Shown here: piece by piece, positions 24,655-25,230 of the stretch
Numbering within the stretch: the first letter of the stretch is position 1
Layout: each line of letters begins with the position of its first letter
Notes under the pieces: generated by a model
The model's input: the letters and a program-made list of their open reading frames with translations, nothing else
Told to the model about the DNA's origin: nothing
Database searches by the model: none
Sequence record: PQ511150.1
Length of the DNA: 64,000 bases
Origin: Escherichia phage NHEP29
Reading direction: 5' to 3' (one strand)
Position numbers and translations under genes: made by a program

Positions 24655-24868
24655 AAGGAATTTCCTCATCGGTGGCAAGGTCATATTCGACCAATTGGAT
24701 AGGCTCATTAATACCATATCCGCGTACAGTGATATCGGTTGACGGATATTTTCCAGTAATATCACCCGTTCTAAATGCTTCAATGAATGATTGCTCGCCT
24801 GAGCAACTAAACCAGGCGGCAAAACATTTTAAAACATCTTCAGACCCTTCTATAATCAATTTAGCCAT
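24644..24868 (-). CDS. hypothetical protein
   Basis: 74-aa ORF. Confidence 0.5.
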   Translation of the reverse strand: MAKLIIEGSEDVLKCFAAWFSCSGEQSFIEAFRTGDITGKYPSTDITVRGYGINEPIQLVEYDLATDEEIPYVD

Positions 24869-25230
24869 TATAGACTCTCAGTAAAGGTACGAGCGATAAC
24901 GTCGCGCTGCTGTTCTGGAGTCAGAGAGTTAAAGCGAACTGCATAACCGGATACACGAATGGTCAGCTGAGGATATTTTTCCGGATGCTTAACTGCATCT
25001 TCCAGAGTTTCACGACGCAGAACGTTAACGTTCAGGTGTTGACCACCTTCAATTTTAACTTTAGGTTGATGTTCAATTTCAATTTCACGGGCATTCAAAC
25101 CGTAGAAAATTTCCGGGTCTACAATAGCGTCTTCTTTAAAAGTCTTAGAGACAATAATCCGGGCTTGAGTACCGTCTTCAAAATAAATAGTGCCTTTATG
25201 TGCACCTTCAAGAATTTGATATGCTTTCAT
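24868..25230 (-). CDS. autonomous glycyl radical cofactor (GrcA/YfiD-like spare-part protein; T4 Y06I-like)
   Basis: 120 aa; C-terminal [19 protein letters not shown]...[29 protein letters not shown] is the glycyl-radical motif of GrcA/PFL. Confidence 0.85.

Follow-up and report, generated by a model that had tools for sequence, protein, structure and literature searches.

The 64,000-nt stretch of Escherichia phage NHEP29 DNA analysed here (sequence record PQ511150.1; hereafter the window) encodes Vs.6, which is very probably a spare part for the host pyruvate formate-lyase (PFL) PflB, from a gene that very probably joins an old phage 5′ half to a 3′ half recently taken from grcA of the host genus, an acquisition that would have occurred at least twice. 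The gene itself is nothing new: well over a thousand phage genomes carry this accessory gene, whose annotation and biochemical function are already known. A description of the vs.6/grcA mosaic was not found in the literature searched; an earlier mention is possible, and we claim no priority.

Identification and genomic context of vs.6

The vs.6 coding sequence occupies positions 24868..25230 on the minus strand as an intact open reading frame of 120 codons plus stop, with an ATG start. An earlier note on this DNA had given exactly these coordinates without a strand, and the 29-residue peptide that it quoted was found verbatim in the Vs.6 translation. A GAGG ribosome-binding site (Shine-Dalgarno), read from the sequence at 25235..25238 (minus strand), overlaps the TGA stop of vs.7, and the vs.6 stop and vs.5 start overlap as TAATG. 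Bounded in this way by its neighbors, the ORF encodes a small free-standing protein rather than the C-terminus of a large enzyme. It is a member of the tightly packed leftward gene string vs.8-vs.7-vs.6-vs.5-vs.4, within a block (regB - vs.4 - vs.5 - vs.6 - vs.7 - vs.8 - denV) that has the same gene order in RB69 and T4, and the 2.2 kb around vs.6 show 97-98% nucleotide identity to RB69-like phages of the genus Mosigvirus. Scanning of positions 23000-27200 for promoters and terminators gave match counts not above those of shuffled sequence, so no dedicated promoter was assigned to vs.6, whose mRNA appears to be a long leftward transcript. In the same string, vs.8 (25542-26045) has no Pfam match and a weak PHROG match to a segment of the terminase large subunit (phrog_2, 7e-5, residues 33-125), possibly a P-loop-like region.

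The protein was assigned using Pfam, TIGR04365, PDB, PHROG and synteny with RB69 and T4. Vs.6 matched Pfam Gly_radical (PF01228) with E=2e-18, the NMR structure of E. coli GrcA/YfiD (PDB 6OWR) with E=2e-42, and phrog_1209 with 9e-63 over residues 1-120, and the top Foldseek matches were 6OWR and 2PFL. Its amino acid identity is 98% to RB69 Vs.6, 93% to T4 Vs.6 (Swiss-Prot Y06I), and 66% to E. coli GrcA. Over residues 61-120 it agrees with GrcA residues 68-127 at all 60 of 60 positions, the RVSGYAV loop and the radical glycine included, and E. coli PflB residues 696-759 align with Vs.6 at E=3e-26 and 76% identity. These similarities are far beyond chance and bear out the claim of the earlier note that the C-terminal 60 residues reproduce the glycyl-radical domain of GrcA and PFL. 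Alignment with GrcA and T4 Y06I, which that note had proposed as a check, finds the radical glycine kept and not substituted: the predicted radical glycine G95 (GGT codon at 24946..24948, minus strand, from alignments and direct sequence reading) aligns with GrcA G102 and PflB G734. The T4 homologue Y06I that had been named as known proved to be the orthologue at the same genomic position. By sequence similarity and gene order, then, the ORF is vs.6 of an RB69-like Mosigvirus, orthologous and syntenic to T4 vs.6/Y06I.

Against TIGR04365, the NCBIfam GrcA equivalog, Vs.6 scored 159.1 bits, below the cutoff of 170, because its N-terminal half has diverged. Since this model was built for bacterial GrcA, the shortfall was treated as a sub-family distinction and not as exclusion, and RefSeq calls RB69 and T4 vs.6 'GrcA' despite a sub-cutoff TIGR04365 score. 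Vs.6 has the small free-standing form and the PFL-type radical domain of the spare-part family and departs from it in one formal respect, this cutoff. Annotation of the family is inconsistent, phrog_1209 being listed under 'unknown function' and other records using pyruvate formate-lyase, 2-ketobutyrate formate-lyase or acetyltransferase. Searching with tblastn detected homologues in 1,588 phage records, near full length in 1,534 (Straboviridae and Demerecviridae). The carriers are T4-like Straboviridae of Escherichia, Shigella, Salmonella, Klebsiella, Enterobacter, Citrobacter, Yersinia, Aeromonas, and Vibrio, and T5-like Demerecviridae.

Mosaic structure of vs.6

DNA alignment of vs.6 with E. 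coli grcA revealed a sharp junction at codon 60/61, with approximately 50% identity upstream and near-identity downstream. The host-identical tract extends from the final 2 nt of codon 60 to the end of the stop codon (24868..25052, minus strand), as delimited by nucleotide identity, dS and megablast, and encodes the structured glycyl-radical module (EGGQHL...TESL). Over the last 183 nt, identity to E. coli grcA is 96.2% for the window, 96.7% for RB69 and 97.8% for T4, with dS values of 0.146, 0.094, and 0.046, respectively; overall, the tail of approximately 185 nt is 96-99% identical to E. coli grcA, with dS of 0.05-0.15. Over the central 168 nt, E. coli grcA is matched at 165 positions by the window and at 167 by T4. 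The protein segment encoded by the tail is invariant across Enterobacterales, and the same DNA compared between bacteria gave 84.2% identity and a dS of 1.02 for E. coli versus Salmonella, and 92.3% and 0.36 for E. coli versus Citrobacter amalonaticus. Among 81 bacterial grcA genes, the T-even tails most resemble, by a wide margin, the two from Escherichia; the next reaches 88-90% and the median is 83.6%.

When the whole window was compared by megablast with 5,426 complete E. coli genomes, a single match was obtained, at 24860-25052, which corresponds to grcA and is present in every one of these genomes. Identity to the E. coli tail is bimodal in the phage collection: 638 records show at least 95%, eight fall between 90 and 95%, and the rest lie below 90%. 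The tail of Phi1 is 74% identical to E. coli grcA, which indicates that the E. coli-type tail is not found in all E. coli phages. The Phi1 homologue (Krischvirus; segment 292-708) is 18 residues longer and contains the PflB-like stretch REMLLDAVEH. In base composition, the vs.6 tail has a GC3 of 0.36, versus 0.24 in the 5′ half, and the few differences between the window tail and E. coli are mainly GC-to-AT substitutions, the pattern to be expected if host DNA drifts toward the composition of the phage.

At the 3′ end, homology may continue slightly past the grcA stop, since the alignment of some E. coli genomes continues for as many as 8 nt (24860-24867) after the vs.6 stop and into the vs.5 start. 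The last ~12 nt of vs.6 contain genus-specific differences, perhaps because the vs.5 ribosome-binding site lies inside them.

The phage-type half, codons 1-60 (25051..25230, minus strand), was delimited by dN/dS, nucleotide identity and GC3. Its probable homology to GrcA residues 1-67 shows at the protein level only, with ~30% amino acid and ~50% nucleotide identity, and the first 180 nt of vs.6 are not alignable with grcA as DNA. The phmmer alignment of Vs.6 with GrcA reaches back to residue 21 at high divergence (dN 0.65), and the conserved positions in this half are Q5, I6, R24, K29, E33, V37, R48, E49, P56, and V58. Relative to E. coli grcA the 5′ half shows dN 0.65 with saturated dS, versus dN 0.055 and dS 0.39 relative to T4, and its dN/dS of approximately 0.14 indicates purifying selection.

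AlphaFold2 (alignment A3) predicts the N-terminal half (residues 1-52) as an ordered four-stranded beta unit with pLDDT 80-88, within a whole-protein model of moderate confidence (pLDDT 68.6) in which the radical module, modelled outside its PFL context, is less confident. A Foldseek search with the N-terminal beta unit returned KOW/SH3-like and ribosomal-protein matches, none of them significant. Residues 1-60 of YfiD aid binding and activation of cleaved PFL (cPFL) and are disordered in isolation by NMR (PMC8683613), and the predicted order of the Vs.6 N-terminal half contrasts with the disorder reported for the equivalent half of YfiD.

That the tail is almost letter-for-letter E. coli grcA DNA indicates that it was copied recently from the host. 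On these DNA comparisons, vs.6 combines an old 5′ half of phage type with a 3′ half that was copied from host grcA in the recent past, and we propose homologous recombination with host-genus grcA as the copying route.

Two further observations concern bacterial grcA. An assembly labelled Vagococcus sp. WN89Y contains an Enterobacteriaceae-type grcA (91% amino acid identity), likely through contamination or mislabelling, and the 275-kb plasmid unnamed4 of Klebsiella sp. WOUb02 carries a grcA copy.

Timing and recurrence of the exchange

Between the window and T4, the genes flanking vs.6 show dS from 0.76 to saturated. Mosigvirus and Tequatrovirus are separated by 18-24 fixed differences in the vs.6 5′ half and by none in the tail core, where variants are scattered around the E. 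coli sequence. Binomial and Fisher tests show a significant lack of synonymous differences in the tail (P = 3e-4 to 2e-10, by reference rate). Fixed differences in the 5′ half together with their lack in the tail core indicate that the tail was installed or re-homogenised after the two genera diverged.

We compared phage tails with the grcA of different hosts over the 168-nt tail core, using Klebsiella grcA from assembly L103; the species of the Klebsiella donor is approximated, with a best identity of 96.4%. The window tail matches E. coli grcA at 165/168 positions, and Klebsiella grcA (L103) and the tail of Klebsiella phage 15882-6-2 (Jiaodavirus) at 146/168 each. Conversely, the 15882-6-2 tail matches Klebsiella grcA (L103) at 162/168 positions and E. 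coli grcA at 147/168, that is, 96% versus 87%, and the tail of a second Jiaodavirus, Klebsiella phage KMI12, matches Klebsiella grcA (L103) at 159/168. These reciprocal host-tracking contrasts gave Fisher P values of 9e-5 and 4e-3. All six variants that separate Klebsiella assembly L103 from L102 are present in the 15882-6-2 tail, and the Klebsiella phages have the Klebsiella-type residues LLDAVEH in place of the E. coli LEDAVKH. In KMI12 the GC3 of the tail is 0.59, versus 0.22 in the 5′ half. The 5′ halves, by contrast, group by phage, the window and 15882-6-2 sharing 73% nucleotide identity and phage versus host giving 44-51%. A Klebsiella-type tail in Jiaodavirus and an E. coli-type tail in the T-evens imply at least two independent host-to-phage replacements at the same junction, one E. 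coli-type in Tequatrovirus/Mosigvirus and one Klebsiella-type in Jiaodavirus, as judged from these alignments. The tails of Slopekvirus, Karamvirus, Pseudotevenvirus, Krischvirus, Aeromonas, Vibrio, and T5-like phages are 56-85% identical to any grcA examined, and recent transfer is therefore not claimed for these other lineages.

Within the E. coli T-evens, a single host-to-phage capture followed by spread between Tequatrovirus and Mosigvirus through phage-phage recombination would account for the left junction ATT|GAAGGT and the AGT or similar variant near the 3′ end, which are common to all phages, and for a 5′-half dS (0.39) lower than that of the flanking genes. It sits less easily with fixed genus differences that lie immediately upstream of the junction and do not continue into the tail core, or with tail variants that are scattered singletons in a star-like pattern with E. 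coli at the center, and the independent Klebsiella-type event shows that the process recurs. We regard a single capture as a real but somewhat doubtful possibility. The reading that we put forward, tentatively, is that repeated and possibly ongoing host-to-phage gene conversion matches the radical module to the grcA of the host genus, with a fixed junction at the domain boundary.

Predicted function of Vs.6 and its relation to anaerobic nucleotide reduction

Oxygen cleaves PFL at the radical glycine G734 (PMC8683613; 2026 review PMC13450708). Only two spare-part proteins have been validated, E. coli YfiD and T4 Y06I; PFL-activating enzyme (PFL-AE) puts a glycyl radical on them, and their complex with cleaved PFL is catalytically active (PMC8683613; PMC13450708). 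Residues 61-127 of YfiD have the fold of PFL residues 693-759 (PMC8683613), and, according to the account in PMC8683613 of work by Wagner et al. (2001), T4 Y06I is activated by PFL-AE and rescues oxygen-cleaved PFL in vitro. Because the Vs.6 module is identical to that of the host protein, the same mechanism is assumed, and by this analogy it can be assumed with high confidence that Vs.6 can be radical-activated by PFL-AE and can restore oxygen-cleaved PFL.

In the mechanism that we propose, T-even infection would shut off host gene expression, so that the cell could not make its own GrcA; this failure to replenish GrcA would provide the rationale for a phage copy, with the phage supplying Vs.6 in its place. 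After oxygen cleavage of PflB at G734, residues 61-120 of Vs.6 would replace the lost PflB C-terminus, the N-terminal half may help docking, and the host PFL-activase (PflA) would install the radical on G95. Conversion of pyruvate to acetyl-CoA and formate would thereby be restored and ATP formation sustained, and the formate might be supplied as reductant to the phage class III ribonucleotide reductase NrdD. The benefit of Vs.6 during infection and the link between formate and NrdD are the parts of this scheme that we infer. No report of an infection phenotype for any vs.6 mutant was found in the literature searched, although an earlier mention remains possible. The statement in the earlier note that the role of Y06I in infection is poorly explored accordingly holds; the biochemistry was shown for T4 Y06I in 2001.

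In RB55, a T4-type laboratory phage (KM607002.1; segment ~316-672), a 13-nt deletion (GGTTATGCAGTTC) takes out the radical-glycine codon and shifts the vs.6 frame; it corresponds to positions ~24935-24950 of the window, and the RB55 record has no annotated vs.6 CDS. Unless it is a sequencing error, the deletion implies that vs.6 is dispensable in the laboratory.

Vs.6 might instead act as a decoy or modulator, its phage-specific N-terminal half redirecting the radical module so that it, for instance, titrates PflA or occupies PflB and rewires host fermentation. The N-terminal half is indeed far from GrcA (dN 0.65) yet conserved among phages, AlphaFold2 predicts it as an ordered beta unit, and the YfiD N-terminus governs binding and activation (PMC8683613). 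However, T4 Y06I restored PFL activity in vitro, as that source describes it, exact retention of the catalytic module most simply means the same function, and evidence of inhibition is absent. We therefore consider a decoy role very unlikely, and repair of PflB remains the preferred function.

A glycyl-radical enzyme and an activase that belong to the phage itself form part of the functional context of vs.6, at a distance of ~16 kb. Both nrdG (6779-7249, minus strand; Pfam Fer4_12, 4e-49, and Radical_SAM) and nrdD (7246-9063, minus strand; Pfam NRDD, 6.5e-171, and Gly_radical, 1.5e-25) were recognized by Pfam at the 6779-9063 location previously given for them. T4 NrdD and the E. coli enzyme are both classified under subtype NrdD1. 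Directly downstream of nrdD, a 157-aa ORF (9060-9533, minus strand) contains a CxxC...HxxHDH...CNxxC motif and may resemble T4 endonuclease VII (gene 49).

A role in nucleotide metabolism was proposed for this protein by Nolan et al. (2006; PMC1524935), and in such a role Vs.6 could in principle act on phage NrdD itself, which would use it as a cofactor or as a replacement radical domain. The presence of nrdD and nrdG within the window would agree with this, as would the Aeromonas phage phiAS5 homologue, which lies between nrdG and nrdC/nrdH, and the Phi1 homologue, which adjoins nrdC.11. The 2006 suggestion of a direct role, however, rested only on a shared Pfam domain (PMC1524935), and in the window vs.6 lies far from nrdDG. 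The Vs.6 module is 100% identical to that of GrcA and 76% identical to PflB, no NRDD Pfam match was obtained for Vs.6, its C-terminus is not of the NrdD type (Zn ribbon plus RRxCGY loop), and the C-terminus of the window's NrdD differs in sequence (...TIRRTCGYLGNP...). For the T4 protein, PMC8683613 describes activation by PFL-AE and rescue of PFL. Given the PFL-type module and the unrelated sequence of the NrdD C-terminus in the window, we judge a direct role with NrdD highly improbable. The phiAS5 homologue (segment 301-678) is 43% identical, has a divergent module (SGFHLNVNV...RISGYAV) and overlaps the end of nrdG; the gene-neighborhood link to anaerobic nucleotide reduction seen in phiAS5 and Phi1 is absent in the window.

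The earlier note had suggested that the phage maintains both host and own glycyl-radical enzymes. With a module that is PFL-type and not NrdD-type, Vs.6 should maintain host PflB and not phage NrdD, which favors the first part of this suggestion over the second. Any link of vs.6 to nrdD/nrdG would be indirect, through PFL-made formate as NrdD reductant; Mulliez reportedly showed in 1995 that the E. coli class III reductase takes its hydrogen from formate.

Other origins considered for the host-like tract

That the tail DNA owes its identity to constraint (an identical protein with the same optimal codons) and not to recent transfer might be argued from the Enterobacterales-wide invariance of the protein segment and the high expression of grcA, but it is effectively refuted, because bacteria with the same segment diverge freely at synonymous sites (dS 1.02 for Salmonella and 0.36 for Citrobacter versus E. 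coli), while the synonymous variants in Klebsiella phages are of the Klebsiella type, tail identity to E. coli is no more than 70-75% in other E. coli phages (Phi1, T5-like), and the departures of the window are mostly GC-to-AT.

Three further origins were considered and rejected. Phage-to-host transfer does not agree with an E. coli tail that diverges normally from those of Citrobacter and Salmonella, with tails that are compositional outliers in the phage gene (GC3 0.36 vs 0.24 in the window; 0.59 vs 0.22 in KMI12), or with the same GC-to-AT departures. As DNA donor, pflB or tdcE does not fit the sequence; the tail contains a 17-residue stretch where PflB has TKEQQQDVITRTFTQSM. Assembly contamination does not explain a tract found in 638 independent phage records, T4 included.

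Implications

An E. coli-type tail in one group of phages and a Klebsiella-type tail in another provide clean evidence of natural DNA exchange between virulent T-even phages and the host chromosome, and the host-identical 185-nt tail offers a simple marker for measuring such exchange. T-even phage DNA carries modified cytosine. If recurrent conversion is true, then lytic, modified-cytosine phages recombine with the very host chromosome they degrade, at a frequency sufficient for a population-wide signature, and vs.6 would constitute a natural 185-bp reporter of host-phage recombination. The combination of vs.6 with nrdD and nrdG also poses a concrete question, namely how T-even phages cope with fluctuating gut oxygen; if they do so by this means, the route would lead from PFL repair through formate to anaerobic dNTP synthesis.

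Comparison with known systems

The closest known system is T4 Vs.6/Y06I (NP_049730), which likewise lies between vs.7 and vs.5, has 120 aa, is 93% identical and has a host-identical tail. The two proteins differ at eight amino acids, seven of them in the N-terminal half; the remaining one is R73H in the T4 module, at a position where Vs.6 of the window agrees with E. coli. E. coli GrcA/YfiD (6OWR; TIGR04365) shares with Vs.6 the two-part architecture, an identical C-terminal 60 residues, tail DNA that is 96% identical, and probably a weak homology through the N-terminal half. Unlike GrcA, Vs.6 is seven residues shorter, its N-terminal half is ~30% identical and unalignable as DNA, and its gene is carried and expressed in an operon of a lytic phage.

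The C-terminal domain of PflB (residues 696-759; PDB 2PFL/1H16) has the same fold and RVSGYAV radical loop at 76% identity and is the part that the spare part replaces, whereas Vs.6 is a free-standing module. The short spare parts GrcA2 and GrcA3 (NCBIfam NF008341 and NF038360) have the radical module in common with Vs.6 (96-107 bits, both scores being under the cutoffs of these families), but they are ~80 aa long and are devoid of the long N-terminal half.

Host-phage intragenic recombination in cyanophage psbA/psbD is said to have been described by Zeidner in 2005 and Sullivan in 2006. As in that system, vs.6 is a host-derived metabolic gene of T4-like phages with mosaic segments that track host sequence; in contrast to it, only the catalytic half of vs.6 is exchanged, the junction is fixed, and the host is enteric.
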